Assembly (NCBI GenBank): GCA_043808015.1
Contig: JAZDFI010000029.1
Location: 7,003-71,002, forward strand
Length of the DNA stretch: 64,000 bases
Direction of reading: 5' to 3'
DNA from: Candidatus Aenigmatarchaeota archaeon
GTDB taxonomy: Archaea > Aenigmatarchaeota > Aenigmatarchaeia > QMZP01 > QMZT01
Of the stretch, positions 4,448-59,296 are shown one piece after another. The notes under the pieces were generated by a model that had not been told where the DNA came from, made no database searches, and was given only the letters and a program-made list of their open reading frames with translations. The position numbers and the translations under genes are program-made. Each line of letters begins with the position of its first letter. Within the stretch, counting starts at the first letter, position 1.

Positions 4448-4516
4448 ACCAACACCTCGCTAATAATATGGTTTCCTGATATTTATTTTTCAAAATCAGC
4501 ACTAAAAGCAAAAGGT

Positions 4517-5041
4517 TTAAGCTTTTCTGAGGCCGCGCATTTTCTTGCCGGACGATGTAAGGCCCTTGAAAACCCTGCCGGCATGCTGCTTCTCGGTGAT
4601 CCACTTTCTCTCGCTGTCGCTCGCTATGACCGGGCTTTCAGGATCGACCAGTATGACTTCGAACCACTCGAACTGGCCGTCTTCTCCGACGAAATAAGAA
4701 TTAAGTATCTCCATGTTGGGGAACTTCCTTGCAGCGCGTTCCTCGCCCATTATCTGGTTGGACTTGCCCGAAGAGAAGAAGCGTCCTCTCTTGCTGGGTC
4801 CGCGGCCGCCCGTGAATTTGGGGCGCTTTCGTTTACCCTTCATGACGCGCACTCTGGCGATGACGAAGCCCTGCTTGGCTTTGTAACCAAGCGTCCTGGC
4901 CCTATCGAGCCTGGTCGGCCCGGACAGTTTGGTGACTACATTCTCGTTTCTCCAGGCAATAATTCTTTCCTTCCACAGGCTGCCCAGATTCTGCCTCGGT
5001 TTCTTCCATAGCTGCTTCATGTTTCTGTTCATACCGACCAC
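4517..5041 (-). CDS. rpl15e: 50S ribosomal protein L15e
   Basis: Basic protein (WKKPRQNLGSLWKERIIAWR...GYVIARVRV...) matching the L15e family. Confidence 0.8.
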   Translation of the reverse strand: MVGMNRNMKQLWKKPRQNLGSLWKERIIAWRNENVVTKLSGPTRLDRARTLGYKAKQGFVIARVRVMKGKRKRPKFTGGRGPSKRGRFFSSGKSNQIMGEERAARKFPNMEILNSYFVGEDGQFEWFEVILVDPESPVIASDSERKWITEKQHAGRVFKGLTSSGKKMRGLRKA

Positions 5042-5136
5042 TGTAGGAATGATTTAGAATGATTAGATATTTAAACATATTTTGGCATGAAAGCTATAAA
5101 AACTTATACGGCCAATTCTATTTAAGAGGTGTAAAT

Positions 5137-8296: not shown

Positions 8297-8917
8297 TCAC
8301 TCTGTGTCCTCTTCCTTCTTTTCCTCTGTTATCGACTTCGCTTTCTCGCCGGCCATGCGCATCGCCGTCTCTTCATCCACCTTTTCCAGGTCGTTTATGG
8401 CGTGCATGAGCTCCTGCGATTCCTCGTCGACGAGCATCTGCTGCTTGCCGAAGACCCGTTCCAGCTTTTCCTTCACCTTATCCAGACGGCCTTCTTCCAA
8501 CGCTTCTCGTACATCGGTATCGGTAAGCACTTCGCTCAGCCTGTCCATGTCCGTGTCGAGAATTTCCTTCGCTATCGACGAAATTTTCTCGCTCTTCTCG
8601 CGCTGTTTCATGGCCTGGACAAGCAGTAGAAGCTGCAATTCGCGGAGAAAATGAGATGCTTCAATCTGCTTCGTGCGAGACTCGAGACTAAACGCCTTGA
8701 TTTTCTGCACGTTAAGCATCTTGAGTGTATTGGGCTGGCCCTTCGACTCGAGCATGAGCTTCTGGATTTTTTCGGCAATACCCCTGAGGTCGTCGGAAAT
8801 CCTCTCTACTTCCTTTTCTATTTTGAGGCGTTCCTTGAGCAAATCATTGTCTTTTATGGAAAATATGTCCTTGCCGAATTTCGATTTGATGAATTTCTTG
8901 AAATCCACCGCTCTCAC
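8297..8917 (-). CDS. cdvB: ESCRT-III / Snf7-like protein (CdvB-like)
   Basis: 206-aa all-helical, charge-segregated coiled-coil protein with an acidic C-terminus. It sits 19 nt upstream of the Vps4 gene on the same strand. Confidence 0.55.
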   Translation of the reverse strand: MRAVDFKKFIKSKFGKDIFSIKDNDLLKERLKIEKEVERISDDLRGIAEKIQKLMLESKGQPNTLKMLNVQKIKAFSLESRTKQIEASHFLRELQLLLLVQAMKQREKSEKISSIAKEILDTDMDRLSEVLTDTDVREALEEGRLDKVKEKLERVFGKQQMLVDEESQELMHAINDLEKVDEETAMRMAGEKAKSITEEKKEEDTE

Positions 8918-8953
8918 CTTGATATTTATTTTGACTGTTTTAAATATAAAGGT

Positions 8954-11900
8954 ATGAAGCGCGGTTTTCTGCTATCGCTCGACGCAATTGTGGCGATAAC
9001 TTTGTTGCTGTCGGTATCGACTTTTTTGGCGGGAATTTCGTTCACTTATTCGACGCCCGAGTTACGCTATCAGCGCTATTACTATGCCGGCAAGGATATC
9101 GCCGCATTGTTTCAGGAAGCCAGAATCAGCTCGGTATCGGACGTCGTCAACCTGACCAAATACAACCTTACACAAGAAGAGATGAACAGGACCATTCTCG
9201 ACGTTATCGGCTCTTTCTGGGCCGGCGGCAACATGAGTGTCGCTAGTAATCTGACAAGGGACATTTTCAGCGAAGTTTTAGGAAACACTGGTCTCAACTA
9301 CGAGGTTTCTTTCAACGACGAAACGATATATGCCAGCGACGACTCTTATTCGGATTTTGTGGCCAGGCTGTCGACTGTTGTATCAGGTTATGAAAAAACG
9401 AAACCTGTCAACGGATATCTTGCGAAGGTTTACGTAACGAAAGTCTCGAAAACCAATTCGGAGTTCATATATTTCGGCGGCTACGAGGGCGACGGTAACA
9501 TAACAAAGGTCATCACGCTTCCTGTCGACGTCAACGTGACCGGCGCGTATCTTGAAATGAACGTCGGCAACAATTTTTTGCTTTACATCAATGGCCAGGC
9601 TGCAGGAACGTACGTCAAGAGCGCCGTAAATTTTTCGGCGGACAACTGGACCATATGTTCAAAAACGAATCCGTCATACTGCTCATACTTTGCGGCCGGC
9701 CAGAACATTATACAGCTGAACTTCACAACAAACCAGAGCACATACGTGGGCGGCGGCTATCTTAAGGTCACTTACAAAACCTCCGAGCTTACGGAATACA
9801 CGACCAGCGGCAATGCCAGTGATTACTATGAATTTCCCGGCATACGCGGCATTATCAACCTTTATTCGTCTTTCTACGTGCCGGGCACGCTTAAAAACAT
9901 GAGTGCAAGATTGCATTACAACAACAACCTCAGCCTCAACAACCAGGGCGTGCCAGTCTATTTTGTTATTGGTTCAAAAGAAATATACAGGAGCAACGCC
10001 ACAGGGGAGCATGTAATCGATATCCCTGAAAAAAACATATCCGATGCGTTCGGAGGAAAAGCGAATCTCACGGAAAAGCTCAGCAACGCGACCATACCCA
10101 TACGCTTCGGCACGGATACCTTCGCCTTTACAAGCGGTGAGGGAACGAGCGACTCTATTCTAATAACAGACATTTCAGGCAGTATGGGCGGCTCCACGGC
10201 CTCATGTGACGTGCAGACTACCGCATGCGAGCACACGGACTGCAACACGGCCAGCGGCTGCCAGAACTACAGGATAGACGTGGCAAAGGACGTGGACAAC
10301 GATTTCGTGGATAACATCCTCAACTACACCGGCAACATGCTCGGCCTTATCAGCTACTCGACCACCGTATATGACAGCCACCCGCTGAGCAATGACAGCT
10401 CTTCACTCCATGCGGAAATAGACGGTTACACACCAACAGATTATACCTGCATATCATGCGGCATCCTCATAGCGACGGACATGCTCCTCGATGCGGCGGT
10501 AATAAATGAAACCATAAAACCGAATTCCACGTGGCTGTATAATGTCAGCTTCCCGTCAAGCGAGCCGCCCGTCGTGAACGGAAGCGAGTGGACATGGCAA
10601 AATTACAGCGATGATGGCTGGTCGTCCGGACAGTCAATACTTGGTTTCGAAAGTCCATCATATTTCCCCAACATAAACACGAACATAGGCAACAACGGCG
10701 GCAACTATTATTTCAGGAAGCACTTCAATTTCACCAAGGCGATGATAGACTCGGCGGACCTTTACGTGCTCTCAGACAACGCTGCCGAAATATACCTCAA
10801 TGGCCATCTTGTTTACAACGATACGTCCGAGCACAACGCCAGATACTGGAACAACTACTACGATGTCCTTGATGAAAATTTCGAAAGCTACTATGCCAGT
10901 GGCGACAACAGGCTTTATTCTACCGAAATAAACCGCACGCCTGGCTACTGGATTGTAGACGGAACGCCAGACGCTGACAAGGAAGTGTTTATCATGGCCA
11001 ACTACGCGGGTTACCCGGCTCATAAAGGGACGGACGTCATGGTCTTCAGGGACATGGACGCATACGGCTCGGTGGAAACGCATCTCAATCTCTCCGGAAA
11101 GGCGAACCTCACGCTTTCATACTGGTGGTCGCTGGGCGACGATGAACCGGACAGCGGGGAATATTCCAATATGCGCATATGGGACGGCAGCTGGCACACC
11201 GTGAAAACTTACAATGCGAGTCACGTTTACGGCGACTATCACAAGGAAACGATAGACCTGAACGCATATAACATGGTAAACAACTTCACTGTAAGATTCG
11301 GCTCAAGGTCGAGCAGCGATACTGAGAGGTTTTATGTCGACGATGTCCGTATCGCTGGTTCGGCAACGCACATAGAAACATCATATTTCAATGACGGAGA
11401 AAACGTCGTTGCCGTGAGACTCAGGAACAACGACGCTGTCGCGGCGAAGTTCGACGCGGCGCTCAACATAACAATGAAGCGATACAAGGCGATGCTGGTG
11501 ATGAGCGACGGGCTCGCCAACAGACCCCTGGGCGTCAATGCGACCGAAGACGCCGTGAGCAAGGCCTGCGATGCGAGAAGGCGCGACATCCAGACGTACA
11601 CGGTCGCCTTCGGCACACAGGCAGACGGAGAGACTCTCAAAAAAATAGCGTGCTGGAACTGCACCACAGGCTCATGGATTCCTAACTGTGACAGGTTCTA
11701 TAACAGCACTGATGCCGAGGAGCTGCAGCAAATATACAGGTCAATCGCAAGAGATATTGCTAACGCCAGCTACGCCGGACAGCTTTTCAATTTCACGGGT
11801 AACGTATCCATGAACAACATCCTATACACGGACTCTTACATATATTTTGATTACACGCCGGTTGTCAGGACCCCCGAATACGGTGAGATAACCCTTAATT

Positions 11901-12697
11901 TCGAATCCCCGCGCCTGGGCGCATCCACAGGCGATATTATGACGACCGATAACGAGACAGGAACAAAGGAGGGCTGGTTCTTCATACCGGGTGACACTGA
12001 AGTCTCGACGGAAGTGCTTGATTCCAAAATAACCTCTTATTCCTCGTACTATTGGACGGACAGGCTTTGGGTCAACTCGTCCAGCACGCCTAATCAAAAC
12101 TGGACGCGCGTATACTGGCTCGCAAATTACTCAAGCGACTACGAAAAACTGGGAGACCCGTACATAGTGCAGATACCGCCCAACATTCTTACAGCGAACG
12201 GCAACAATTCGTTTAAAATAGGCACCGGGCTTCGTCCGACTCCGCTGTCCGGAGGCAAAGGCGCCTCGCCGGACGACAGGGTGATTTACACGCTGGGCAT
12301 AAAAGGCATAAGCCTCACCCAATACAGCGATGTTTTTGCCAAGGCTAAAGGTTCGACTGTCACGATATATTACGATGCGAACGGCGATAACGTCGCGGAC
12401 AGCTCTTCTGTGGTGGAAATCGGACCGGACCCTGACGACAATTTCGACCCCATGAACGACTCGATAGATAATGGTTTTATGAAGCTCATTGACAGGATGA
12501 ATTTCATGAGCGATGTTAATTCAGGCGTGGTCGACTTAAATTACACGGCATCGGGACCAAGCGGCACCGGCGACGGCTCTTCAGGCAACCCGGTCGACCT
12601 GGAAATAACAGAAGACGTGAATTTCAATTCTGATTTCATATCCCAGATATCATCCATGTGGGGTCCTGCGATAATGGAGGTAAAAATATGGGGATGA
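8954..12697 (+). CDS. Giant (1247 aa) class III signal peptide (type IV pilin-like) surface protein with a vWA domain interrupted by a PA14-like insertion; putative glycosylated adhesin
   Basis: True start is the ATG at 8954: MKRGFLLSLDAIVAITLLLSV has the archaeal prepilin pattern of [KR]G followed by a hydrophobic helix with Ser and an acidic residue. The ORF extension upstream of 8954 overlaps cdvB antisense and looks spurious. vWA MIDAS motif DISGSMGG sits near 10169 and the MLVMSDGLAN...YTVAFG part about 440 aa later. Between them is a PA14-like stretch GNYYFRKHFNF...LYVLSDNAAEIYLNGHLVYND. There are dozens of N-x-S/T sequons. Confidence 0.7.
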   Translation: MKRGFLLSLDAIVAITLLLSVSTFLAGISFTYSTPELRYQRYYYAGKDIAALFQEARISSVSDVVNLTKYNLTQEEMNRTILDVIGSFWAGGNMSVASNLTRDIFSEVLGNTGLNYEVSFNDETIYASDDSYSDFVARLSTVVSGYEKTKPVNGYLAKVYVTKVSKTNSEFIYFGGYEGDGNITKVITLPVDVNVTGAYLEMNVGNNFLLYINGQAAGTYVKSAVNFSADNWTICSKTNPSYCSYFAAGQNIIQLNFTTNQSTYVGGGYLKVTYKTSELTEYTTSGNASDYYEFPGIRGIINLYSSFYVPGTLKNMSARLHYNNNLSLNNQGVPVYFVIGSKEIYRSNATGEHVIDIPEKNISDAFGGKANLTEKLSNATIPIRFGTDTFAFTSGEGTSDSILITDISGSMGGSTASCDVQTTACEHTDCNTASGCQNYRIDVAKDVDNDFVDNILNYTGNMLGLISYSTTVYDSHPLSNDSSSLHAEIDGYTPTDYTCISCGILIATDMLLDAAVINETIKPNSTWLYNVSFPSSEPPVVNGSEWTWQNYSDDGWSSGQSILGFESPSYFPNINTNIGNNGGNYYFRKHFNFTKAMIDSADLYVLSDNAAEIYLNGHLVYNDTSEHNARYWNNYYDVLDENFESYYASGDNRLYSTEINRTPGYWIVDGTPDADKEVFIMANYAGYPAHKGTDVMVFRDMDAYGSVETHLNLSGKANLTLSYWWSLGDDEPDSGEYSNMRIWDGSWHTVKTYNASHVYGDYHKETIDLNAYNMVNNFTVRFGSRSSSDTERFYVDDVRIAGSATHIETSYFNDGENVVAVRLRNNDAVAAKFDAALNITMKRYKAMLVMSDGLANRPLGVNATEDAVSKACDARRRDIQTYTVAFGTQADGETLKKIACWNCTTGSWIPNCDRFYNSTDAEELQQIYRSIARDIANASYAGQLFNFTGNVSMNNILYTDSYIYFDYTPVVRTPEYGEITLNFESPRLGASTGDIMTTDNETGTKEGWFFIPGDTEVSTEVLDSKITSYSSYYWTDRLWVNSSSTPNQNWTRVYWLANYSSDYEKLGDPYIVQIPPNILTANGNNSFKIGTGLRPTPLSGGKGASPDDRVIYTLGIKGISLTQYSDVFAKAKGSTVTIYYDANGDNVADSSSVVEIGPDPDDNFDPMNDSIDNGFMKLIDRMNFMSDVNSGVVDLNYTASGPSGTGDGSSGNPVDLEITEDVNFNSDFISQISSMWGPAIMEVKIWG

Positions 12698-13380
12698 GTA
12701 AAGCGAAAGTTTTGTTTGTGTCTGCTGTTGCGTTTTCAATTTTGATGTTGTTTATGAGTCATGCTACCGCTCAGGAGGATGAAGAAAAAATAGTGTGCCT
12801 GGTTTACTTCACAAGCAACGGCTGCGGGGACGAGTGCAGGTTCACTGATACTTTCATGAGCGGCCTGATGCGAGAATACGCAGGAACTCTAGTGTCGATA
12901 ATTTATTTCGTTGATGATAGCGCACAAAACAGCGTCGTTTTCAATGCGTACAGGTCGACATATAATCTGCCGGCCAACGTCCCCATAGTTTTGTTCGGCA
13001 AAGACGATTATCTGCAAGGGAGGAGTGACATATACGAGGGTACTGAAAAAAAAATATTCGATTTTCTGCTGGCCAACGGCACCAACTGCCCGCTGGACTC
13101 GGGCTTTGTTGCACCGAGCCAGCTCTCGCCTGGAAGCGTCCCCGGCGCGCAAATCCTGAGAATGCCCCCAGACAAGGAAGCTGTAAAAAATGACAGCATA
13201 GGGACGATTTCCGAAGATGATGATGTCATGAATGGCAATGACAGCGGACCCGGAGATATCCTGGCGCTGAACGAACCCATGAAAGAAAGCGTCTTCTCCC
13301 TTGTTATTATAGGAATTGTTCTGATAGTGGTGGCCGCCATCATTATTTATGTGTGGACTAAAACGCAGGAAAGTTTATGA
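12688..13380 (+). CDS. Secreted, C-terminally membrane-anchored protein (signal peptide, Cys-rich, Asn-sequons)
   Basis: GGAGGT lies 11 nt upstream of the ATG at 12688. The ATG overlaps the stop codon of the adhesin gene. N-terminal signal peptide and C-terminal TM helix plus short tail. Confidence 0.5.
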   Translation: MGMSKAKVLFVSAVAFSILMLFMSHATAQEDEEKIVCLVYFTSNGCGDECRFTDTFMSGLMREYAGTLVSIIYFVDDSAQNSVVFNAYRSTYNLPANVPIVLFGKDDYLQGRSDIYEGTEKKIFDFLLANGTNCPLDSGFVAPSQLSPGSVPGAQILRMPPDKEAVKNDSIGTISEDDDVMNGNDSGPGDILALNEPMKESVFSLVIIGIVLIVVAAIIIYVWTKTQESL

Positions 13381-16080: not shown

Positions 16081-17022
16081 TCACTCAAACTGGGTTGGCT
16101 GGCTTTCGACTTTAACTGAAACTATTTTGTATATAGAGAAAAGCATGAACGCCGCCCCGAGCCACTGAACCAGCGATAGCGTTTTGCCGTAAATCGCGAA
16201 TTCGAGTATTATCGCGGTAATGGGGAACGCCAGCTCGTATATTGTCGATTTTGATGCAGGCACGTGCTTGAGGCCGTAATAATATATGAATATCGCCACT
16301 CCACCCGTGGTGAAAGCTATGAGCAGTAAAGTCGCGATGTTCGCCGGCTCAACTGCCGCGAATTTGTCGAAACGATTAGTAGCCGTTATAATCAGCAGCA
16401 AGATTAATGTGGTTATGCCGAACCTGAGGTACGTTCCAACACGAAAGTTCACTTTGTGTATCGCCCTCTTGCTGAATGTCGTCGACGAGCCGAACGCAAA
16501 CGCTGCAACCAGCGAAAGACCGGCGGCGATTAACGTCTTGTTTTCTAGGCTCAGCACGGGCTGCTCGAAACCGAACGTCAATAGATAACTGCCAATCAGG
16601 GCAATGGCAGCCCATATGAAAAAGTTCTTCTGCGGTTTTTCTTTGAGCACGACAGCCGCGAGCAGGATGGCAAAAATCGGCTGCAGTTTTTGCAGCAGAA
16701 TCACGACTGAAAGCTGGATAAAACCGACGAAGAACAGCGCCGACGTTATGGCCATCGTGCCTATCGCGCCACCGAAGAGGCCGACCCACGCGAACGAACC
16801 CCAGTCTCTGGGCTTTAGTTTTTTCAGCTCTTTGCGCTCGATGAACAAAAACACTGCCATGTAGCAAAATGCTATCGCATGCTCGATGAATACGACTATC
16901 GCGACGTCAAGATGGTAAAGCGACGGACGGAGCAAAACGCCGTCGATGCCCCATAACGCCGCTGCGAACGCTATAGCAATCGCTCCGATTACGGGCATGG
17001 ATTTTTTGTCAAATGAAAACAT
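16081..17022 (-). CDS. EamA/DMT-family transporter (10 TM)
   Basis: Duplicated five-TM EamA-like topology. Start trimmed to MFSFDKK. Confidence 0.6.
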   Translation of the reverse strand: MFSFDKKSMPVIGAIAIAFAAALWGIDGVLLRPSLYHLDVAIVVFIEHAIAFCYMAVFLFIERKELKKLKPRDWGSFAWVGLFGGAIGTMAITSALFFVGFIQLSVVILLQKLQPIFAILLAAVVLKEKPQKNFFIWAAIALIGSYLLTFGFEQPVLSLENKTLIAAGLSLVAAFAFGSSTTFSKRAIHKVNFRVGTYLRFGITTLILLLIITATNRFDKFAAVEPANIATLLLIAFTTGGVAIFIYYYGLKHVPASKSTIYELAFPITAIILEFAIYGKTLSLVQWLGAAFMLFSIYKIVSVKVESQPTQFE

Positions 17023-17027
17023 GAAAA

Positions 17028-17684
17028 TTATATCCTTATTTCGACATGGACGTAATCGTCCTCTTTCAGGCAAAGCGTTTTTCTCAGGTCTTCCGATGCT
17101 ATTATTTCAACTATGTCCGTGGGATGGTGTGTCCTTTCTGGAATTATGACCGCGCCCCTGGCCTTGCGGTTTATCATGCACGGATAAGTGTTGATGTCGC
17201 CGAATGCCCTGTTGTCCTTTTTGAAGCCGCGTATGGTTATGGGCCGCATGTTTTCCATCTCGTCTTTTGCCTTAACGTCCTGGACCGTTTTCAGGCGTAC
17301 GTTAAGCGTGCCGAGAAACGGGCGAAACCCCAATTTTTCATGGAACTGCAAAAAGTATTCGTCCTGACCGACATAATAACGTCCTTCGCCGGATCCCGAC
17401 ACCAGCACGCCTCCGAATGCGATGGATTCGGTTTTAGGACGCTCGACAATTTCCCTGAGTTCCAGATATTTTTTCCTTATGAACTTCGCGCCTTCGTCCG
17501 TAAGCGATACGAACTGGCCTTTCGCCGCCGTCTCCCGCTCTATCAGACCGAGACTCTCCAGCTCGCGTATCTTGCGCGACATGGTCTGCTGTGACGAGCC
17601 GAGCCTCTTGGCCATATCCAGCGTGGTGACCCTGGTCTTTCTTTTAGCCAGCTCGACTAGCACGTCAAACATCTCGCACTTCAT
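17028..17684 (-). CDS. ribK: Archaeal CTP-dependent riboflavin kinase with N-terminal winged HTH
   Basis: N-terminal wHTH, then GTLNVRL...PERTHHPTDIVEI, characteristic of the archaeal riboflavin-kinase fold (MJ0056 family). Confidence 0.65.
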   Translation of the reverse strand: MKCEMFDVLVELAKRKTRVTTLDMAKRLGSSQQTMSRKIRELESLGLIERETAAKGQFVSLTDEGAKFIRKKYLELREIVERPKTESIAFGGVLVSGSGEGRYYVGQDEYFLQFHEKLGFRPFLGTLNVRLKTVQDVKAKDEMENMRPITIRGFKKDNRAFGDINTYPCMINRKARGAVIIPERTHHPTDIVEIIASEDLRKTLCLKEDDYVHVEIRI

Positions 17685-17740: not shown

Positions 17741-18238
17741 CTATTCGAACTCTATCGATCCCATGCTGTAAATTTCCTTGATGACGGCTATGAATTTTTC
17801 CGACATGGCCTTGCATCTCTCTATCATGGCCTGCCTGACGGTATTGTAGAAAATGTGCCAGTATACCCACCAGAAAAACATGACAAGCTTGTTGCCTGTG
17901 AATTCGTGCCTGACCACAGGCTCTATCTCCATCTTGAAAGTTCCCTCGTTTTTCGCCTTGCCCTTGAAGCCCACCATCTTTATGCCGACGATTATTTGGG
18001 AGAATCTGCCAGTCGTCCTGTTGTGCTTGGCTATGCGCCAGTAATACATCTGTATCGGGTCGCCGCCCCAGTCCCACATCCAGCGCGGTTCGCCTGTTCC
18101 GGTGGTAGTGACCTCGAACACCGAACGAAGGATTGACGTCCCTTCCCTGGTCCAGGCAAGCGGATCGGGCCCTGCATAATCTATCCATCTGTTCCTGCGC
18201 GGAGCAAAACAATCGTCTTCAACTATGAACTTGCCCAT
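17741..18238 (-). CDS. Hypothetical protein, tandem paralog 1 (165 aa)
   Basis: Homologous to the adjacent ORF (FIVEDDCF..YAGPDP vs LIQEDCY..YVGPNP, and conserved aromatic C-terminal helix). Confidence 0.5.
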   Translation of the reverse strand: MGKFIVEDDCFAPRRNRWIDYAGPDPLAWTREGTSILRSVFEVTTTGTGEPRWMWDWGGDPIQMYYWRIAKHNRTTGRFSQIIVGIKMVGFKGKAKNEGTFKMEIEPVVRHEFTGNKLVMFFWWVYWHIFYNTVRQAMIERCKAMSEKFIAVIKEIYSMGSIEFE

Positions 18239-18250: not shown

Positions 18251-18769
18251 TTACCCGCTCTCGTCCCTCAGCTGTCTCAAGAACTCGTGAACGTTCCTGT
18301 TGAAAATAGTGACCATGTTCCTGCAGTCTTCCGCGTACTCCTCCCTCTTGCGGAAATAGAACGACCTGTGCCAGGCGACACGGAGCATCTCATAAAACAG
18401 GGAACGCTGCCATATCGTGTCCTGCGGGTATTCGGTCCTCATGACCGGCTTTACCCTGATCTCGGCGTTGCCAGTCTTTTCGTCTCCGTATCCGGAAATG
18501 TCGACTCTTATGAACATGTAGGTATACGGGTCAATGTCCTTGTGGATGTACCATCTTACCTTGAACTTCTCCTTTTCTCCCTTGCCCCAGCTGTATTTTT
18601 CTTCCTGTATGTCGGAATCGGCGGCTCGAAAGACCGCTTTCATGAGATCGTAAACCTTGTAATAAAGCTTCATGGGATTCGGGCCCACGTAATTTATAGT
18701 GACCCTTTCCGGTCTTTCCCTGTAGCAATCTTCCTGTATCAGCAGCTTCGTTCTCGCAAACTGTGGCAT
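18251..18769 (-). CDS. Hypothetical protein, tandem paralog 2 (172 aa)
   Basis: See paralog 1. 12-nt spacer between the two. Confidence 0.5.
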   Translation of the reverse strand: MPQFARTKLLIQEDCYRERPERVTINYVGPNPMKLYYKVYDLMKAVFRAADSDIQEEKYSWGKGEKEKFKVRWYIHKDIDPYTYMFIRVDISGYGDEKTGNAEIRVKPVMRTEYPQDTIWQRSLFYEMLRVAWHRSFYFRKREEYAEDCRNMVTIFNRNVHEFLRQLRDESG

Positions 18770-18844
18770 GACAACACCTTCTTAATTATTTATATTCAAA
18801 AACGAAATTATAAATTGCTATGGTATGCGTGTGAGGATGTTTTT

Positions 18845-19045
18845 ATGCTCTGGTGGCTTGTTTCAAAAATAATCGCCCTCGTAATGATAGCTGCGGGTGG
18901 TTTTCTGGTGTTCTTTTTTCCAGGCATAAGTGGACAGCAGGAGGCGGGCGCTTCCAACTACCCCCAGACGAATTTCGGCCTGGCCGGCATAGTGATAGGC
19001 CTCGTCCTCATAATAGCCGGCGGTTTCCTGCTATTCAGCCAGTGA
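18845..19045 (+). CDS. Small two-TM membrane protein (66 aa)
   Basis: MLWWLVSKIIALVMIAAGGFLVFFFPG...GLAGIVIGLVLIIAGGFLLFSQ is an internally repeated hydrophobic hairpin. The upstream part of the listed ORF is antisense to paralog 2. Confidence 0.4.
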   Translation: MLWWLVSKIIALVMIAAGGFLVFFFPGISGQQEAGASNYPQTNFGLAGIVIGLVLIIAGGFLLFSQ

Positions 19046-19089
19046 GGCGCTAGTAATACTTTTATCTCTTTCTTCCACAATTAATTATC

Positions 19090-20823
19090 ATGGCAGACAC
19101 AGAACTCGAGAAGCCGCTCGACCGCATGACCAGGGAAGAGAAGAAAAAACGAAAAGAAGAGGCGGAAGAACACAAGAGAGAAGCGAAGGTCAGATGGTGG
19201 AAAAAAGAGCTCGGCGATTATGACACGGTCCTGGAATATCTTTTCGCCAAGGCCAGGGAAACCGGCGGCATATATGGCGATATTGTGATAAGCCCCGCCC
19301 TCATAGACCAGATAGTGACTCTCAATCCCGTCGCGCTCGAGGGCCAGGCAGAAATAATTTTCAACGTCTTCATGTACAGGCTGGCCAAATGGCATTATCT
19401 TTTTGAAAAGGCGGACGAACTCATAAAAGTCACGCCGGTAGCGCCGCCAGCGTTCGCCCCGATGCTGGCACAGAAAGAGAAGCTGGAAAGCCACATAAAA
19501 GCGGGCCTCGCATCCGCAGCGCAGGCTGTCGCGGACTACGAGCTGCTGAAGCACGACGAAAGAAAATACAGGGAGATTCTCGACTACTTCAAGATGGGCG
19601 AGAAGGACCAGCACGTGCTGCGCGCGCTTTATGTCGACCGCGTCGACGCCTACATGGGCGATGGCTATTCGATGGTGACGATGACGAAACGCTGGCCCAC
19701 TATAATAGGCGACTTCCTGAAGATGCAGGATGCATGGACGGACACAAAACTCATAAGGGAAAGGCTTAGGGTGACGAACGTCGAGGCGAACGTGCTCAAG
19801 ACGAAAAACGAACTTTTCAAGGAGTGGAAGAAGCTGTTCTTCCCGGATGTGCGCGAGCGCTACGGCAGGATAAAGAACCTGCTCGACTCGAGGAAGCGCT
19901 CCGTCGACGAATACAGGGAATGGCTCAAGCCGTATTTCAACAAGCTAAAACTGATAAGGGAGGAGTCTGAGTTGAAGGACGCGGCATCGGACTTCACGGA
20001 CCCGTTAAAATTCGGGTTCACGCCGAATGGCGAGGTGAACGCGAAGCTCTGGTTCTGGAAACCCATCAGGCCGGAAGAGACAGGCAAACCCCTCATCATC
20101 CAAGGGTGGGGCGAGATACCGATATTCGACGACTGGGTGAAGGATATGCTTCCAGCCCTTGAGGCAAAACATGAAGTCAAGTGGACTGAAGAGCAAGTAA
20201 AAAAATTTATCACTGAAAAACGGCACGGCACTCCCGGTTCAAGGACGAGCAAGCGAAAGGAATTGCTGACCATATACCCTGCACAGGAAATAGACGAGAG
20301 ATTCATTTATTATTTTTTCGTGGATTTGGACTACGTGTGCCAGTACAAGAAAGGCTCGACGGGTCCGATGGTCGTTGAGGACCAGTATTGGCACTTCCAC
20401 CCTTTTCTGTTGTCAAAAAACGTCATCCTGCTCATGCAGCTTGAGCTTGCAAGTAAAAGTAAAAAGCTCAGGAATGAGATAGAGAGAATCATCGGCGTGA
20501 AGGAAATAGAGAGGGAACACATAGAACAGGCTGAGAAGGACTACAGGCTTGAGAGCGAAAACGTGCATGAGGACAAAAAGAAGACTCTCGCGAAATGGAA
20601 AGATGGCTGGGAAGGCAACAAAATAGCATGGAAGGCCAGACGGAGAAACCTCAAAAAGACGCTGCAACCACTGCTCAAATTTTTCTTCAAGCCGGGCCCG
20701 TACGAGATAAACGTCGCCGAGAGGGTCTCGAAAACGTATGGCCTGTATTTCGGAGCCCAGGTGGAGGAGATGAGGGAACTCATCAAGGAAACTAGTTATA
20801 GGATAAGCGGTCAGAGACCATAG
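19090..20823 (+). CDS. Large hypothetical protein (577 aa), Lys/Glu-rich N-terminus, mostly helical
   Basis: Long ORF with no recognisable catalytic motif. Followed 7 nt later by a second large unknown. Confidence 0.55.
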   Translation: MADTELEKPLDRMTREEKKKRKEEAEEHKREAKVRWWKKELGDYDTVLEYLFAKARETGGIYGDIVISPALIDQIVTLNPVALEGQAEIIFNVFMYRLAKWHYLFEKADELIKVTPVAPPAFAPMLAQKEKLESHIKAGLASAAQAVADYELLKHDERKYREILDYFKMGEKDQHVLRALYVDRVDAYMGDGYSMVTMTKRWPTIIGDFLKMQDAWTDTKLIRERLRVTNVEANVLKTKNELFKEWKKLFFPDVRERYGRIKNLLDSRKRSVDEYREWLKPYFNKLKLIREESELKDAASDFTDPLKFGFTPNGEVNAKLWFWKPIRPEETGKPLIIQGWGEIPIFDDWVKDMLPALEAKHEVKWTEEQVKKFITEKRHGTPGSRTSKRKELLTIYPAQEIDERFIYYFFVDLDYVCQYKKGSTGPMVVEDQYWHFHPFLLSKNVILLMQLELASKSKKLRNEIERIIGVKEIEREHIEQAEKDYRLESENVHEDKKKTLAKWKDGWEGNKIAWKARRRNLKKTLQPLLKFFFKPGPYEINVAERVSKTYGLYFGAQVEEMRELIKETSYRISGQRP

Positions 20824-20830
20824 GGTATTT

Positions 20831-22597
20831 ATGATCAAGGTCGGAGTCACGACTGGTTTGTATTACATTGCCAGGGCGGAAGAGCTAGCAACGTCGCTGA
20901 AAAAGATAGGTTATGCCCTGTCGAAAGGTGCGAACTCCATCGAGATATCGGGCGACACTCCGCACGAGATAGATTATACGATAGGACAGGAGATACGCGA
21001 CCTCGCCTTCAAGCAGGGCATCGACCTGTGTTTTCACGGCTCGCTAACCACGCCTTTCGAAATCCCCGAGCGCTCCGACTGGAGGGACGCGCAGGAGCAC
21101 GTCGAGAAGTCGATACGTTCCGCCGTTTTTTCCGGCTCGAAATACGTCCTGTTCCACGCCTGCCTGCACTTCTGGCTGGAGATGATAACGTTCACGTCAT
21201 CGAAGCTCGAAATAGTCATGTGCGACCACGCGGGACGCATCATATCCGACATACTGAAGGATGATGAGCGCCTCAGGAACTGGTTTTCCGTCAAGATGTG
21301 GGAATACGAAAGGCAGTATCCTCACCTGATTCTGAGGGAAGAGGACCGTTACGAAGCGGCTCTCAGGGCGCAGGAAGAAATGAGGATATGGTCGGAAAAG
21401 GAAAATGAAAGAAGGCTTGGCGAGGAAATCAAAAAGAACCCTCCAAAAAACGAAATGGAATTAATGAAAATGCAGGCTCATGTAAGAGAGGGTGTAGCAA
21501 AGGAATTGAGCATCGTGCAGTCAAAAAAACAAAAAGAATACGAAACGGAAATGGTAAAAAAACGAATGGCGAACAACAATCCCGACGAGAGAAGATGGAA
21601 AGTCGAGACTTACGGCAAGATGACCGACTGTTATGAAATAATAGCGCATCATATGTTCTACAGAAAAGACCCGTTATGGGTGGCCATGGCCGAAGTTTAC
21701 AAGGATGTGCTTGCACCTTATAACCTGGATTATAATGACGACTGGGCGCTTGACAAGGCTTGGAGAAAAGCGCAGGACAGTAACGACCGCCAGTTCAAGG
21801 AGTTCTGGTATGCAGCTATGGGCGCGAAGTTCCTTGAAGGCCACATGAAATCGGCCCTGGAATATCTGAACGGCAAGCTGCTGACTTTTCTCAAGCAGTT
21901 CCCGGATTCCGCAAAGCTGATAGAAAATGCCAAAAAACTGAAAATAACGATAGAGATGCCGGACGCCAGAGACCCCAGATACGCCGGGCAATACATATTG
22001 TGGCATCCCAAGCAGATTTATGCCGCCATAAAAACCATAAGAAAAACGCTCAATACCGACAGGATTTTCATGACCATCGACTGGGAGCACATAGCCGGTC
22101 AGGGAGTCGACCCGCTGATAGAGATCGGCAATCTTAAGCGATTGGCGCCGGACTTCGGCAAATACGTGCTTTCCGTCCATTCCAATGCTCCAAACCCGCT
22201 GCATGCCCATTACCCCATAGAGCTGGGCGACACCGAGGTTTACAAACTAAACTATTTTTTGCGCAGCACGGGCTTCGGCAAGCAGCCTGGATACGACGTG
22301 TATCTCTGGTTCGAGCGCGGCGGCGGCGACGACCCGTTCCGCCAGTCAGTCGATACGCTCAAGCTATGCGCCAAATTTCTCGAGCAGGACGTGCATCCGG
22401 ACAATCTGCCCCAGGAATATTTCGGCATAAAACTGACTGGCATGGACTTCTGGAGGCAGGAAAACATAATGAGGGACCACAGGTTCGAGCCGCTCAAGGA
22501 CCTGCTGGAAATGCCCGAAGAGGAATGGGGTATGCTCTCCTCGGTAGCGATGAGAAAGGGTAAGACAAAGGAATTCAAGAAGGAAGAACTGAAGTAG
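20831..22597 (+). CDS. Hypothetical 588-aa protein with split xylose-isomerase-like TIM-barrel signature and a coiled-coil insertion
   Basis: N-terminal GVTTGLYY...HGSLT...FHACLHFW and C-terminal DRIFMTIDWEHIAGQGVD...LSVHSNAPNPLHAHYP resemble metal-binding motifs of sugar-phosphate isomerase / AP-endonuclease-2-like TIM barrels. A charged helical insert of about 150 aa separates them. Confidence 0.5.
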   Translation: MIKVGVTTGLYYIARAEELATSLKKIGYALSKGANSIEISGDTPHEIDYTIGQEIRDLAFKQGIDLCFHGSLTTPFEIPERSDWRDAQEHVEKSIRSAVFSGSKYVLFHACLHFWLEMITFTSSKLEIVMCDHAGRIISDILKDDERLRNWFSVKMWEYERQYPHLILREEDRYEAALRAQEEMRIWSEKENERRLGEEIKKNPPKNEMELMKMQAHVREGVAKELSIVQSKKQKEYETEMVKKRMANNNPDERRWKVETYGKMTDCYEIIAHHMFYRKDPLWVAMAEVYKDVLAPYNLDYNDDWALDKAWRKAQDSNDRQFKEFWYAAMGAKFLEGHMKSALEYLNGKLLTFLKQFPDSAKLIENAKKLKITIEMPDARDPRYAGQYILWHPKQIYAAIKTIRKTLNTDRIFMTIDWEHIAGQGVDPLIEIGNLKRLAPDFGKYVLSVHSNAPNPLHAHYPIELGDTEVYKLNYFLRSTGFGKQPGYDVYLWFERGGGDDPFRQSVDTLKLCAKFLEQDVHPDNLPQEYFGIKLTGMDFWRQENIMRDHRFEPLKDLLEMPEEEWGMLSSVAMRKGKTKEFKKEELK

Positions 22598-25313: not shown

Positions 25314-25367
25314 GATAGAATATTGTTTTATGTTTTAATTTAATTAAAACACGGCCAACTAATGTAT

Positions 25368-26561
25368 ATGAAAGGGCAGTTTTATTCTGCAATCGCAATA
25401 CTCATCGCCATTCCCATCGTCGTATTCGTCACCCTTTATGTGGCCACCCAGGGCGGCGAGGATGGCATCTACCAGGCGATAGTCGCGGACCAGATACACC
25501 AAGTGGAATCGGGAATAGAAAACGATTTCGGCAAGGCCGTCGTGACGTCGGGAAAACGCGCCATGATAGCCGGCGACGACTATGTCGTCATGAGCGGCAA
25601 AGCGCTTTCCGACGCCGCGGGCGGCGTGAAAGAACTGATGCAGTACGGCACGATAGAAGGCAACGAAAGCATACTCATGCACAATAATACCATATCCAAC
25701 TGGACCAGCAAAATACTGGCCATACCGTCAAATTTCGACATCAACATAACTTACTGGGGCCTCGACGTCGCCGGTTCAGGTGCATTTCACATCAAAGCTT
25801 CTGCGAGAATAAACGTTTCTGTCGCTGATGAGGTCGGCATCGCGCGCATAGACAAAATAGGAGAGTATTATGAAGCTCTTATTCCGATTGAGGGGGCCGA
25901 AGATCCCGTATTCACCCTGAAAACAGGCGGCCTTGTCACCAGGACGGTCAAGCTTTCACCATATCCTTACAGGGCAAAAAAACTGGTGATTGGCGGCCTT
26001 AACTCGAGCGGCAACTGCACCGGCAACTTCACAATGAACAAGAGCGACTGCTCGTCAAAAATACTGGTTGCGGAAAACACGAGCGGTGTCGCTTTATCAT
26101 GCTTTTCCGGTTTCATAATAGAAACATCCATGAACCTCAGCTCCGATTCGGACTGTTACGTCACGGGCAACGGCAACGCAGTTGAATCTATAACACAAGC
26201 CCTCGCGGAAACGAATTACAATAAAATATACATAGACGGTCCGACAAAGGCGGCATGGCACCTGCCCATACGCGATGATATAGACGAGAAATATTATTTC
26301 AGCGGTGGTGGTCCGTTGTTTCTGAAGCGACTGGAAGGCAATCTCAACCAAACGCCCGATGGTCTGGAAACTTTTGTGAACCTGCCGGAACTGGAAAGCA
26401 ACCAGATTCCGATAAAGCAGAACGTCATCTCCGTGGATTATATATATTTTGGGGGACAAGACTATATTGGGTATCCGGTGAGGGGTTTGCAGGGCTGGTT
26501 CAGGCTTAACAGGACTTTTACGGACAGGTATAATCTCACCGAGTTGTGCAATGGTTGTTGA
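25368..26561 (+). CDS. Secreted pilin-like Cys-rich glycoprotein (class III-like signal peptide)
   Basis: MKGQFYSAIAILIAIPIVVFV N-terminus, KGQ then hydrophobic helix. Many N-x-S/T sequons and Cys pairs. Confidence 0.5.
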   Translation: MKGQFYSAIAILIAIPIVVFVTLYVATQGGEDGIYQAIVADQIHQVESGIENDFGKAVVTSGKRAMIAGDDYVVMSGKALSDAAGGVKELMQYGTIEGNESILMHNNTISNWTSKILAIPSNFDINITYWGLDVAGSGAFHIKASARINVSVADEVGIARIDKIGEYYEALIPIEGAEDPVFTLKTGGLVTRTVKLSPYPYRAKKLVIGGLNSSGNCTGNFTMNKSDCSSKILVAENTSGVALSCFSGFIIETSMNLSSDSDCYVTGNGNAVESITQALAETNYNKIYIDGPTKAAWHLPIRDDIDEKYYFSGGGPLFLKRLEGNLNQTPDGLETFVNLPELESNQIPIKQNVISVDYIYFGGQDYIGYPVRGLQGWFRLNRTFTDRYNLTELCNGC

Positions 26562-27414
26562 TATGAAAAAAGGGAAAGATGAAGTAACATCCACGGAAAC
26601 AAAAGATAAAGCTACAGGCGAAAATACAAAGGGTTCCGGGAAGAACGATATTCTGGAAAAGAAGTGGGAGAATCTTGTGAAAGAGTCCACAAAGGATTCT
26701 AAACAGACCAAAGACGCGGGCACGAAAGGCGAAGCGCTGAAAGGGGATTTGAAAAAAGAGGTGCCAAAGCACGAAAAACCGGCCAAAGAATCACCTGCAA
26801 AAAAAGAAGCTGCTCGAAAAAAAACAGAGTGGACAGAAGATGATGGGACGGACGATGATGAAAAATCGACCTATAATAAAAAGAAAGGCGTAATAAAAGA
26901 CCATCTGGAAACCGATGTAGATAAACTCTACGAGCTCGCCAGGGACAGGGGAATAATAAAAATAAACGAAGCTGCAAAATTACTGAAAATAGATATAGAT
27001 CAGATCGAAGAATGGGGCAGGATACTGGAAGAGCACAAACTGGTGCGATTACGTTATCCGCCTGTCGGTGAGCCGGTTCTGATACTGAAAAAATTCATGA
27101 CTGACACCGAAAAAATAAAGGAGATAAAGCAAAAAATAAAACTGAAACCGAGGAAGAGGGTGTTCATGATAAACATTATCATACTCGCCTGCTTCATCGT
27201 CGCCGTGTCATTCTATACCATAAGATTCGGGGCCATACGCATCACTTACACCCAAGCTTATTTAGCGGCGGCCGTAATTATTATAATAGCCGGGGTTTTG
27301 ATTTTCAAGTTCAAAATAAAGAAAAGGGTAAAAAAAGATGATAAAAAAAATACCGAGACTTCCTCAGAAGGATCCCAAGGGGACCATGGAAAGCCAGCCA
27401 GAAAACCGGCCTGA
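26551..27414 (+). CDS. Lys-rich protein with internal wHTH-like segment and two C-terminal TM helices
   Basis: Disordered K/E-rich N-terminus, then KLYELARDRGIIKINEAAKLLKIDIDQIEEWGRILEEHKLV, then TM helices. Overlaps both neighbours. Confidence 0.4.
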   Translation: MVVDMKKGKDEVTSTETKDKATGENTKGSGKNDILEKKWENLVKESTKDSKQTKDAGTKGEALKGDLKKEVPKHEKPAKESPAKKEAARKKTEWTEDDGTDDDEKSTYNKKKGVIKDHLETDVDKLYELARDRGIIKINEAAKLLKIDIDQIEEWGRILEEHKLVRLRYPPVGEPVLILKKFMTDTEKIKEIKQKIKLKPRKRVFMINIIILACFIVAVSFYTIRFGAIRITYTQAYLAAAVIIIIAGVLIFKFKIKKRVKKDDKKNTETSSEGSQGDHGKPARKPA

Positions 27415-28897
27415 GGAAAGAAAAATAATAGAGGATTACAGCATAGATTATCAGAATGTATCGGCCTCCGTTAAAATATATCACGACCCGCAGGAATACG
27501 TTCCTATTTATGACCTCAAATACCCCAAGATAGAGGAAGCCACATGGGCGATTCTCGACTCCATCAGGGAAAAAATAGTCACCGAGCTCGCTTTCAGGAC
27601 GGACGACATTCTGAGCACCGAAGAAACCGGGGACGTCAAGAAAAAATTCGTGCAGAAGGCCACCACCCTTATTCATGCGGAACTGCCAAGCCTGTCGAAA
27701 AACGACGTCGGCATACTTGTCGGCATTCTTTCCCAGGAATCGCTTGGCCTTGGCCCGATAGAATTCATGCTTAAAGACAATGACCTCGAAGAGATAGTCA
27801 TAAACAACGCCAAGGAACCCATATGGGTTTATCACAGGACTTACGGCTGGCTGAAGTCGAATGTTATACTGAGCGACGAAACCAAAATATATAATTATTC
27901 CGCACAGATAGGCAGGAAGGTCGGGACCCAGATAACAAATCTCAATCCCCTCATGGATGCTTATCTGACGACAGGCGACAGGGCCAACGCGACACTTTTT
28001 CCGATATCGTCAAAGGGCAACACGTTAACGATAAGAAAATTCGCCAGAAGGCCATGGACCATAACGGATTTCATAGAAACGAACACGATAACCCCGGAAG
28101 TCGCGGCATTTCTCTGGCTGGCTATACAGTTCGAAATGAACATCGTCTGCACTGGAGGCACGGCTTCGGGCAAGACGTCTTTCCTCAATGTATTGTGCAT
28201 GTTCATCCCGCCGAGCCAGCGCATCCTATCCATCGAGGATACGAGAGAAATCCAGCTTCCGCCATTCCTCCACTGGGTCCCCATGACTACGAGGCCGCCG
28301 AACATTGAAGGTAAAGGCGAGGTCACAATGCTTCAACTCATGATAAACGCGCTTAGAATGCGCCCCGACAGGATGATAGTCGGCGAGATACGCCGTTCGA
28401 AGGAAGCAGAAGTCCTGTTCGAGGCTATAAACACAGGCCACTCTGTTTACTCCACGCTTCACGCCAACACCAGCGAAGAAACGCTCAAGCGTCTCATCAA
28501 CCCGCCCATAAACATTCCCATGTCGCTTCTCACGTCGCTCCAGCTGATAGCGGTCATGCACAGGGACAGGCGCAGGAGAATAAGAAGGGTTCTTGAGATA
28601 ACCGAGCTCATACCTTCCGGTGGGCTGGACGAAATGAAAATCGAACTGAACAACGTGTTCAGATGGATACCATCCAAGGACCAGATAGTCGAATGGGGTA
28701 AATCGAACCGCGTCCTCAATGACATCAAGCTATTTTCCGGGATGGAAGATAATGAAATAAAGAAAAATCTCGAGGAAAAAAAGAGCATTCTGATGTGGCT
28801 GGTAAAAAACAAAGTCAACACGATAGATAAAGTTGGCAGTACGATATCCGATTACTATAAGGACCAGGAAAAGATTCTCAGAATGATAAAGAAATAG
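27386..28897 (+). CDS. FlaI/TadA/GspE-family secretion ATPase (type IV pilus assembly ATPase) 1
   Basis: Walker A VCTGGTASGKTSFLN, then SIEDTREIQL and GEIRR motifs typical of archaeal FlaI/TadA. Start trimmed. Confidence 0.8.
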   Translation: MESQPENRPEERKIIEDYSIDYQNVSASVKIYHDPQEYVPIYDLKYPKIEEATWAILDSIREKIVTELAFRTDDILSTEETGDVKKKFVQKATTLIHAELPSLSKNDVGILVGILSQESLGLGPIEFMLKDNDLEEIVINNAKEPIWVYHRTYGWLKSNVILSDETKIYNYSAQIGRKVGTQITNLNPLMDAYLTTGDRANATLFPISSKGNTLTIRKFARRPWTITDFIETNTITPEVAAFLWLAIQFEMNIVCTGGTASGKTSFLNVLCMFIPPSQRILSIEDTREIQLPPFLHWVPMTTRPPNIEGKGEVTMLQLMINALRMRPDRMIVGEIRRSKEAEVLFEAINTGHSVYSTLHANTSEETLKRLINPPINIPMSLLTSLQLIAVMHRDRRRRIRRVLEITELIPSGGLDEMKIELNNVFRWIPSKDQIVEWGKSNRVLNDIKLFSGMEDNEIKKNLEEKKSILMWLVKNKVNTIDKVGSTISDYYKDQEKILRMIKK

Positions 28898-58245: not shown

Positions 58246-58368
58246 AATTTCATATAATTCGTGAATGAATTTAAAAGCTTTTCGTGAAGGTCGTGTAAAT
58301 CGTGTGAAAATGTAGTGTGATATATGTGAAATGACAAACAATTTATATAATGGCGGCATATTCATCTA

Positions 58369-58917: not shown

Positions 58918-59296
58918 AAAGACGCTGACAAAAATATCAGTAGTTGGATCTGTGTTAAGTATAATTTTACTGTATTTTATGACTCTGAACATCATTCCTG
59001 AGGGAATGGCTATCGGTAATCTTGATCGATCATTAATTGGCAGAAGCGTTAGCATAACCGGAAAAATAACTTCACTCTACGTGAACAACGGTAACATGTT
59101 CATGAACGTCGCTGACGAAAGCGGTGAAATAAAGGCAGTGTTATGGAAAGATACTCTGGAGATGATCCGTATCAATGACATTAATCCTGATACATTCGAA
59201 GTCGGTAAAAAAATAGACATAACAGGTGAAATCCAGGAATATAAAGGGGAACTTGAAATAGTGCCTGTGAAAGGCGTTGTGAAGCTGGCTGATTGA
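58910..59296 (+). CDS. Membrane-anchored OB-fold protein
   Basis: N-terminal hydrophobic anchor, then OB-fold-like beta region (VSITGKITSLYVNNGNMFMNVADESGEIKAVLW). Start overlaps the ligT stop. Confidence 0.45.
   Translation: MNEKTLTKISVVGSVLSIILLYFMTLNIIPEGMAIGNLDRSLIGRSVSITGKITSLYVNNGNMFMNVADESGEIKAVLWKDTLEMIRINDINPDTFEVGKKIDITGEIQEYKGELEIVPVKGVVKLAD

Follow-up and report, generated by a model that had tools for sequence, protein, structure and literature searches.

We analyzed a 64-kb stretch of a Candidatus Aenigmatarchaeota chromosome (here called the window; all coordinates are window positions) around two large adjacent genes, ORF1 and ORF2. ORF2 very probably is an active metalloenzyme of the PF01261 superfamily that works within a functionally linked module. 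The module comprises five genes, designated sB, sA, mem, ORF1, and ORF2. The active site of ORF2 is best read as a multinuclear metal site of the endonuclease IV (EndoIV) type, a three-metal-type site carried on a barrel that is split by a 254-aa helical domain and encoded together with a partner gene. To our knowledge, such a split barrel with a partner has not been described for the PF01261 superfamily. Thus, a known kind of enzyme, the EndoIV-type barrel, is found here in a new form, and the module that surrounds it is phylum specific and uncharacterized. Four of the five module proteins have no recognizable relatives, and searches with ORF1, sA/sB, and mem found none in Pfam, the PDB, or viral structures. 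Our overall picture, to which we give slightly less than an even chance, is that of a membrane-tethered, multisubunit, tri-metal phosphoesterase specific to the Aenigmatarchaeota.

The two large genes had been noted in an original prediction made from the sequence letters, which described ORFs of 577 and 588 aa on the same strand, 7 nt apart. The coordinates and the spacing were confirmed, both reading frames are intact, and the spacer reads ggtattt. About 250 homologues each of ORF1 and ORF2 were found at an E value of ≤1e-3 in a collection of 5.8 billion proteins, nearly all of them labeled Candidatus Aenigmatarchaeota, and an NCBI protein from an Aenigmatarchaeota metagenome-assembled genome is 100% identical to the window ORF2. 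ORF1 and ORF2 are genuine, strongly conserved genes. As had been predicted, neither falls in a characterized housekeeping family in Pfam, NCBIfam, or PDB searches. The elements of the module in the window are as follows.

17741-18238, minus strand: sA, a 165-aa soluble protein, paralog of sB, with invariant Cys10 and Cys141
18251-18769, minus strand: sB, a soluble protein of 172 aa that is better conserved than sA, with invariant Cys15 and Cys149
18770-18844, no strand: sB/mem divergent intergenic region of 75 bp, AT-rich, with TATA-like TTAATTATTTATATT and AAATTATAAATT and, ahead of the mem start codon, a GAGG, as read from the sequence
18845-19045, plus strand: mem, 66 aa with two hydrophobic helices, 44 nt upstream of ORF1, found by a hydrophobic-ORF scan of the loci
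19090-20823, plus strand: ORF1, a 577-aa orphan alpha/beta protein, from the AlphaFold2 (AF2) model and the family alignment
20831-22597, plus strand: ORF2, 588 aa, the split barrel

The conservation of this arrangement was surveyed by tblastn with the window proteins, using one genome per GTDB species. A relative of ORF2 was present in 94 species, and 80 loci were retrieved (cited below by numbers with the prefix L). Whether ORF1 and ORF2 co-occur elsewhere had been left as a point to check, and the two proved to be linked throughout the phylum: of the 64 species loci with enough flanking sequence, 60 have ORF1 immediately upstream of ORF2 in the same orientation, at a median distance of 14 nt. 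The wider module is nearly as constant. Of 55 loci, 52 contain all four of sA, sB, ORF1, and ORF2, and 47 have them in the canonical order sA(-) sB(-) and then ORF1(+) ORF2(+), with sA adjoining sB on the strand opposite ORF1 and ORF2. The median gap from sB to sA is 7 nt (46 loci). Rearrangements were seen in L037 and L048, and sA is found downstream of ORF2 in L061, L062, and L066. The lowest identity to the window protein among the species loci is 38% for sB and 23% for sA, and ORF2 spans 36 to 90% across the phylum. Since the identities go down to 36% for ORF2 and 27% for ORF1, the linkage of the module survives deep divergence and is not a by-product of close relatedness.

The gene order points to two divergent transcription units, one consisting of sB and sA and the other, on the opposite strand, of mem, ORF1, and ORF2. 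The 75-bp spacer between sB and mem presumably carries bidirectional archaeal promoters. Aenigmatarchaeota are uncultivated DPANN archaea, tiny symbionts with genomes of about 1 Mb. That five genes are kept together phylum-wide in genomes of this size suggests that the module is likely to be central to the biology of these organisms. A literature search of Aenigmatarchaeota and DPANN papers found no description of the cluster. The surroundings of the pair had been described originally as two tandem small paralogs, a small membrane protein, and a TrmB regulator. The paralogs are real (24% identity; E = 2e-12), as is TrmB (PF01978; E = 1.7e-20), but the paralogs and the two-transmembrane (2-TM) mini-protein are conserved parts of the module and not scenery. 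The linkage of TrmB to the pair is limited to the window's own clade.

The ORF2 model was computed with AF2 from a 35-sequence alignment and is an eight-strand (βα)8 barrel with a predicted local distance difference test score (pLDDT) of 84 and a predicted template modeling score (pTM) of 0.80. The protein divides into the following segments, all on the plus strand.

20831-21175, plus strand: aa 1-115, N-terminal half-barrel (β1-β4), AF2 strands 2-7, 36-40, 65-71, and 105-109, with His69 at the end of β3 and His109 at the end of β4
21176-21937, plus strand: aa 116-369, insert made up entirely of helices, positioned on the barrel's catalytic face, AF2 pLDDT mostly >90
21338-21571, plus strand: aa 170-247, helical hairpin within the insert, 46% K/E/R/D, varying in sequence and length between lineages
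21596-21937, plus strand: aa 256-369, helical cap within the insert, less charged and conserved, with invariant W256, D280, N318/D319, K323, K333, and H338
21938-22330, plus strand: aa 370-500, C-terminal half-barrel (β5-β8), AF2 strands 371-375, 412-417, 446-450, and 490-494, with Glu375, Asp417, His420, His450, His458, His460, and Glu495
22331-22597, plus strand: aa 501-588 and stop codon, conserved helical extension with the acidic-then-basic tail PEEEWG..LS..A..KGK.KEFKKEE.R, AF2 pLDDT 61-75

The original prediction had likened ORF2 to xylose isomerases and to apurinic/apyrimidinic (AP) endonuclease 2, and this is borne out by the AF2 fold, by Foldseek, and by the Pfam matches of its homologues. 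In a Foldseek search of the PDB with the ORF2 model, the top 50 matches were all xylose-isomerase-like barrels (UxuA, ketose 3-epimerases, UlaE, YcjR, EndoIV, and African swine fever virus AP endonuclease), with a TMt of 0.45 to 0.68 and an identity of 7 to 11%. The lowest root mean square deviation (rmsd) among the listed matches was that of Escherichia coli EndoIV (8rly_C; 5.6 Å; TMt, 0.67). Searches with ORF2 itself gave no significant match in Pfam, NCBIfam, PHROG, or PADLOC, and PDB sequence and profile searches gave noise. PF01261, however, is matched by 32 of 35 members of the ORF2 family (best E = 2.3e-9), and the scores of deep-branching homologues (55.6 and 67.5 bits) exceed the gathering cutoff of 31.1. 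The ORF2 family belongs to PF01261, the xylose-isomerase-like superfamily.

A TIM barrel split by a charged coiled coil of about 150 aa had been proposed. The split barrel stands, but the insert is about 254 aa long and consists of the charged hairpin (aa 170-247) plus the conserved cap. The cap holds the conserved block NDRxFKEFFYAxxGAKFLEGH in the family alignment. In the model, the insert departs from the barrel on its catalytic face, following β4, and for this reason the conserved cap probably is a lid that helps to form the substrate pocket. Speculatively, the C-terminal tail could serve as an interaction tail.

Three stretches of ORF2 with His, Glu, and Asp residues had been singled out as metal-binding signatures: FHACLHFW, TIDWEHIAGQGVD, and LSVHSNAPNP. 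They were located at aa 108-115, 415-427, and 447-456, respectively. Conservation was counted in an 81-sequence ORF2 alignment. H69, H109, E375, D417, H420, H450, H458, H460, and E495 are conserved in 78 to 81 of the 81 sequences (His69 in 78 and His109 in all 81), and E419, D427, P454, and E464 are conserved as well (77 to 81 of 81). In the AF2 model, the conserved residues lie at or just past the C-terminal ends of the β-strands.

ORF2 was compared with Nfo, the E. coli EndoIV, by running hhalign in local mode with low mact, using a family profile from which the insert had been deleted. With the full-length ORF2 profile, or in global alignment, no usable match to Nfo was obtained before the insert was removed. 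The insert-deleted profile matched Nfo with an E value of 0.011 over 251 columns; the values for the other barrels were 0.035 for c10 (a PF01261 protein family encoded near the module and described below), 0.061 for UlaE, 0.062 for YcjR, and 0.19 for Hyi. In the order given above, the nine ORF2 residues align with Nfo H69, H109, E145, D179, H182, H216, D229, H231, and E261. All of these are present in the E. coli sequence, and in the EndoIV structure they are the ligands of the three metals. Eight of the nine are identical in ORF2, the exception being Nfo D229, which is replaced by His458. The two proteins also share the DxxHxxxxGxD spacing and an HxN after β7. Thus, the residues that had been picked out as metal binding align with the Nfo ligands and are nearly invariant in the family. 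It is the combination of the fold, the strand-end topology, the family-wide invariance, and the one-to-one ligand match that makes an EndoIV-type multinuclear metal site the best reading, and ORF2 probably is most like, and descended from, the EndoIV branch of PF01261.

Endonuclease IV (Nfo/Apn1; AP endonuclease family 2, PF01261) and ORF2 therefore have in common the (βα)8 barrel, the nine ligand positions, and the two motifs. Nfo is a compact, single-domain protein (about 285 aa) whose DNA-binding face is open, whereas ORF2 has 588 aa, to which the 254-aa insert following β4 and a C-terminal extension of 88 aa contribute. The sequences are about 7 to 9% identical, the DNA-intercalating Tyr72 and Leu73 of Nfo are Leu72 and Thr73 in ORF2, and an orphan partner gene and a membrane mini-protein stand alongside. 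As modeled, ORF2 has neither the architecture nor the DNA contacts of an Nfo orthologue.

Several points weigh against the reading of ORF2 as an EndoIV-type enzyme within a dedicated module. The Nfo alignment is weak by itself (E = 0.011, with a single-sequence template), and the window protein misses the Pfam threshold, with no match to PF01261 at an E value of ≤1; the splitting of the barrel by the insert hides its membership in the window sequence. The EndoIV-type ligand set is also that of the MNIOs (oxidative enzymes that depend on multinuclear nonheme iron), so that the same geometry serves oxidation as well as hydrolysis. The predicted lid on the catalytic face and the loss of Tyr72/Leu73 argue against a canonical AP endonuclease acting on duplex DNA. 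sA/sB and mem were not found beside the pair in L083, L085, and L089 and hence may be dispensable or lineage specific. Most of the neighboring genes serve information processing in a generic way (ABCE1, Trm1, ligase, and PCNA) and point to no pathway. Finally, the lengths of the ORF2 hairpin and of ORF1 segments covary weakly (|rho| of about 0.38), with phylogeny as a confounder, and this was not used.

The partner protein, ORF1, was described originally as Lys/Glu rich and helical. It is Lys/Glu rich (22.5% K+E, with a variable, K/E-rich N terminus), but the AF2 model (pLDDT, 75; pTM, 0.67) is mixed alpha/beta and not purely helical. It contains helices at aa 120-170 (51 residues) and 230-288 (59 residues) and a beta-hairpin at aa 407-442 (15+15 residues). 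The most conserved blocks are VDRVDAxTGEGYS and RWPTIIxDF, and no TM segment was found in the protein. Foldseek searches with ORF1 against the PDB and BFVD gave no significant fold match, with coiled-coil or low-probability matches at most, and Pfam, NCBIfam, PHROG, and PADLOC gave none. A Pfam scan of 83 relatives (39 close and 44 divergent) for domain fusions to ORF1 revealed none. Searching 1.84 billion cluster representatives with the ORF1 profile returned only 240 clusters, with short forms of 386 to 426 aa among the weakest.

A small membrane protein beside the pair also had been predicted. It exists, but at 18845-19045 and not at 18853-19053. The program-listed ORF at 18853-19053 (+), which also has 66 aa, is in the wrong frame, and the real mem lies inside a long spurious GTG ORF (18287-19045). 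All 59 loci with the sB-ORF1 layout have a mem-type ORF of 48 to 78 aa in the interval between these two genes, on the strand of ORF1. It has a grand average of hydropathy (GRAVY) of 1.3 to 1.9 and two predicted TM helices, and its loop carries the conserved motif FFFP..(H/Y/Q)Q(E/P). In the rearranged loci L037 and L048, mem still lies directly upstream of ORF1 on the same strand, which indicates that mem belongs with ORF1.

sA and sB fall into one common BLAST cluster across 56 loci. The median identity of sB to the window protein is 53%, and its 236 homologues are nearly all labeled Aenigmatarchaeota; none has a Pfam domain. The family alignment contains two invariant Cys residues, one near the N terminus and one in the C-terminal helix. 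No Pfam family was found for sA/sB when the window proteins and 36 members were scanned, and no sequence relative was found in the PDB, where single-sequence and profile searches gave noise.

In the phosphoesterase picture outlined above, ORF2 would be the catalytic subunit, binding two or three metals, and would hydrolyze a phosphoester bond with a metal-activated water in the manner of EndoIV. The cap would serve as a lid, shaping or restricting the pocket for the substrate, and the variable charged hairpin would be a protruding arm. ORF1 may be an obligatory noncatalytic partner or scaffold built around its helices of about 50 to 60 residues, and mem, a putatively cotranscribed mini-protein with two TM helices, would hold ORF1 at the cytoplasmic face of the membrane. 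The Cys-pair paralogs sA and sB may be accessory subunits, carriers, or substrates. The gene after ORF2 encodes a nucleotidyltransferase of the MNT-HEPN type in roughly half of the lineages. We regard as rather unlikely the proposal that the module is an as yet unknown, membrane-anchored multiprotein machine found in no group but the Aenigmatarchaeota, in which a tri-metal barrel of EndoIV descent has come to act on something other than DNA, with ORF1 as a scaffold of new fold and sA/sB as carriers. Candidate substrates would be host phospholipid head groups, nucleotidylated or phosphodiester-linked proteins resulting from the MNT-HEPN enzyme, and RNA ends. If this proposal is true, the module would be a lineage-defining adaptation to a symbiotic, biosynthesis-poor lifestyle. 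The module could reveal an unusual repair nuclease or a new membrane use of EndoIV chemistry in a symbiont that has to scavenge host nucleotides and lipids, and it is a well-defined target for complex structure prediction and heterologous biochemistry.

Other explanations were weighed against the membrane-tethered phosphoesterase. An unlikely one is that ORF2 is the lineage's repair AP endonuclease, nicking abasic sites or cleaning 3'-blocked ends, with ORF1 as a coiled-coil DNA tether, loosely as Rad50/SbcC is to Mre11/SbcD. The nine-ligand EndoIV site would suit this role, as would the finding that EndoIV is the structural match of lowest rmsd. Genes of DNA metabolism also occur nearby. In the window's clade, the second gene downstream encodes an ATP-dependent DNA ligase (19 loci); in L002, sA has PCNA, an HhH-GPD glycosylase, and TatD as neighbors; and in L085, NurA is encoded near the pair. 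In addition, c10, which is present in 18 loci, lacks most of the Nfo ligands and hence is not an obvious canonical Nfo. These repair-gene neighbors vary by clade, however, and, the genomes being small, may reflect synteny that was inherited. The lid and arm would sit on the DNA-binding face, Tyr72/Leu73 of Nfo are not kept, ORF1 lacks both an ATPase domain and any known DNA-binding domain, and a dedicated membrane mini-protein fits base-excision repair poorly. A distinctly improbable alternative makes ORF2 a sugar or sugar-phosphate isomerase, epimerase, or dehydratase with a single Mn/Co site, as in ketose 3-epimerases or UxuA, and with the insert as a lid. The top Foldseek PDB matches are indeed of this kind (E values of 5e-4 to 1e-2); they include mannonate dehydratase (UxuA; 4eac), which has an inserted domain as ORF2 does, many ketose 3-epimerases, UlaE, and YcjR, and they share an E-D-H-E subset of the ligands. 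Several homologues are auto-annotated by the Joint Genome Institute as "sugar phosphate isomerase/epimerase," and a closed lid would fit a small-molecule substrate. Set against this, the matches have identities of just 7 to 11% and an rmsd of 8 to 18 Å, and the profile scores of UlaE, YcjR, and Hyi are below that of Nfo. Five invariant His residues (His69, His109, His420, His458, and His460) would be superfluous in a four-ligand site; in YcjR, the positions of the β3 and β4 His residues are occupied by Ala and Pro. No conserved sugar-metabolism genes lie nearby, and the orphan partner and the membrane mini-protein would be left unexplained. The original prediction had allowed for an enzyme acting on either DNA or sugar phosphates; a sugar isomerase is disfavored by the evidence, because ORF2 has all nine EndoIV ligands and not just the four of epimerases.

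The MNIOs (PF05114; MbnB, TglH, and ChrH) resemble the module in several ways. Like ORF2, for which the metals are predicted, they are multinuclear-metal TIM barrels with an adjacent partner and small Cys proteins nearby, and the superfamily is shared. MNIOs require O2. It is very unlikely, in our view, that ORF2 is a tri-iron oxidative barrel of this type, with ORF1 as its partner and the Cys residues of sA/sB modified posttranslationally. Besides the shared ligand set, this view draws on the two invariant Cys residues of both sA and sB, on Cys131 of ORF2 (conserved in 66 of 81 sequences), and on a glutaredoxin fusion in L089 that hints at thiol chemistry. MNIOs act mostly on Cys and often require a partner protein encoded alongside (PMC12452194). 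The ORF2 family, however, matches PF01261 and not PF05114, the latter being absent among the families matched by 35 members at an E value of ≤1. The ORF1 family (83 relatives) has no Pfam match and therefore none to the partner families DUF2063, MbnC, and Anthrone_oxy. sA and sB are folded proteins of 165 to 172 aa, not leader-core peptides, and deep-branching loci do not have them next to the pair. The hosts probably are anaerobic, at odds with the O2 need of MNIOs; Aenigmatarchaeota are described as fermentative and from largely anoxic settings (PMC8407114). The chance is similarly slim that the module serves the acquisition or remodeling of membrane lipids, with ORF2 acting on head groups like a phospholipase C or D, ORF1 and sA/sB as helix-grip-type carriers, and mem as the dock. 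For this speak mem as a dedicated two-TM partner of ORF1, the three multi-TM proteins upstream of the pair in L089, and the size of sA/sB together with their strand-helix-strands-long C-terminal helix pattern, which was read from the sequence and is typical of START/Bet v 1 proteins. Elements of the ORF1 sheet gave faint Foldseek matches to SRPBCC/Ups1 lipid-transfer folds (probability of ≤0.14), but these structural hints are statistically insignificant, no conserved lipid-metabolism gene lies nearby, and we know of no EndoIV-type barrel that acts on lipids. Aenigmatarchaeota are unable to make membrane lipids de novo (PMC8407114), which would fit such a function.

Deep-branching loci contain shorter forms of the pair. 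L085, labeled Aenigmatarchaeota, encodes a short ORF1-like protein of 404 aa and an ORF2-like PF01261 protein of 499 aa. L089 comes from a closed 875-kb genome (CP066684.1) with the same label, in which three multi-TM proteins, an ORF1-like protein (409 aa), a glutaredoxin-fused ORF2-like protein (617 aa), a nucleotidyltransferase, and Trm1 are encoded in this order on one strand. The ORF1-ORF2 pair and the nucleotidyltransferase are kept in both of these short forms. sA/sB-like proteins were not detected in L085, L086, or L089 by hidden Markov model searches or hhalign. The pair persists where sA/sB are undetectable, which marks ORF1-ORF2 as the ancient core. In L089, the glutaredoxin domain is N-terminal on the ORF2 homologue (9263-11113), and the three multi-TM proteins stand where sA, sB, and mem would.

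Outside the module, the neighbors vary. In 39 loci outside the window's clade, a nucleotidyltransferase of about 400 aa, with MNT (NTP_transf_2/Polβ) and HEPN-like parts, is encoded directly downstream of ORF2 on the same strand; the gene was not found in the 64-kb window. TrmB and the DNA ligase are found downstream of ORF2 in the window's clade only. Frequent outer neighbors are ABCE1 (32 loci) and Trm1 (11 loci). The c10 protein of about 290 aa is encoded 3 to 4 genes downstream of ORF2 in its 18 loci (12479-13363 [-] in L002 and 17 others). With N in place of D179 and no His at the H216 position, it is, judging by its residues, a second, degenerate barrel. In L002, a gene for the large subunit of form III RuBisCO (3790-5070) lies between sB and mem-ORF1-ORF2, and the PCNA, HhH-GPD glycosylase, and TatD DNase genes are just past sA. 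Recurring beside the module in divergent lineages are small proteins whose amphipathic N terminus (MGFF...) is followed by a long stretch of low complexity and, at the C terminus, a short coiled coil (D.DRI..KLD..L..L). They are found next to sA in L068, L071, L076, L079, and L082 and also in L085 (1909-2415 [-]) and L086 (1380-3152 [-]), the latter with three tandem copies, and they have no family match.

The setting in the window is that of an ordinary chromosome, with genes for ABCE1, a CTP-dependent riboflavin kinase, TrmB, an ATP-dependent DNA ligase, the alpha and beta subunits of PheRS, RtcB, and PPDK; no tRNA genes were found in the 64 kb. The GC content around the ORF1/ORF2 locus is unremarkable. 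A mobile or viral origin of the module was considered and rejected. The genes around it are housekeeping genes, PHROG (phage) and PADLOC (defense) scans of ORF1, ORF2, sA, and sB gave no significant match, no relatives of the module were found among IMG/VR viral contigs, and no fold match was found in BFVD.

Elsewhere in the window, the GC content drops to 0.407 at 58001-60000, compared with about 0.48 to 0.51 in the rest. Further orphans without a Pfam match at an E value of ≤1e-5 are the ORFs at 8651-12697 (+), 5417-7138 (-), and 44497-46041 (-), of 1,348, 573, and 514 aa, respectively. As listed, from a TTG start, an EamA transporter ORF shares 46 nt with the 3' end of the riboflavin kinase gene (16081-17073 [-] and 17028-17684 [-], respectively); its actual start probably is further downstream. 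The region 25362-28897 (+) encodes a 399-aa protein without a Pfam match, a charged protein of 287 aa that has a TM segment at its C terminus, and a T2SSE-type ATPase of 519 aa. This trio stays together downstream of the ligase in 13 to 18 related loci and probably is an assembly cluster like that of a type IV pilus or archaellum. A second T2SSE ATPase is encoded in the window at 52689-54377 (+).

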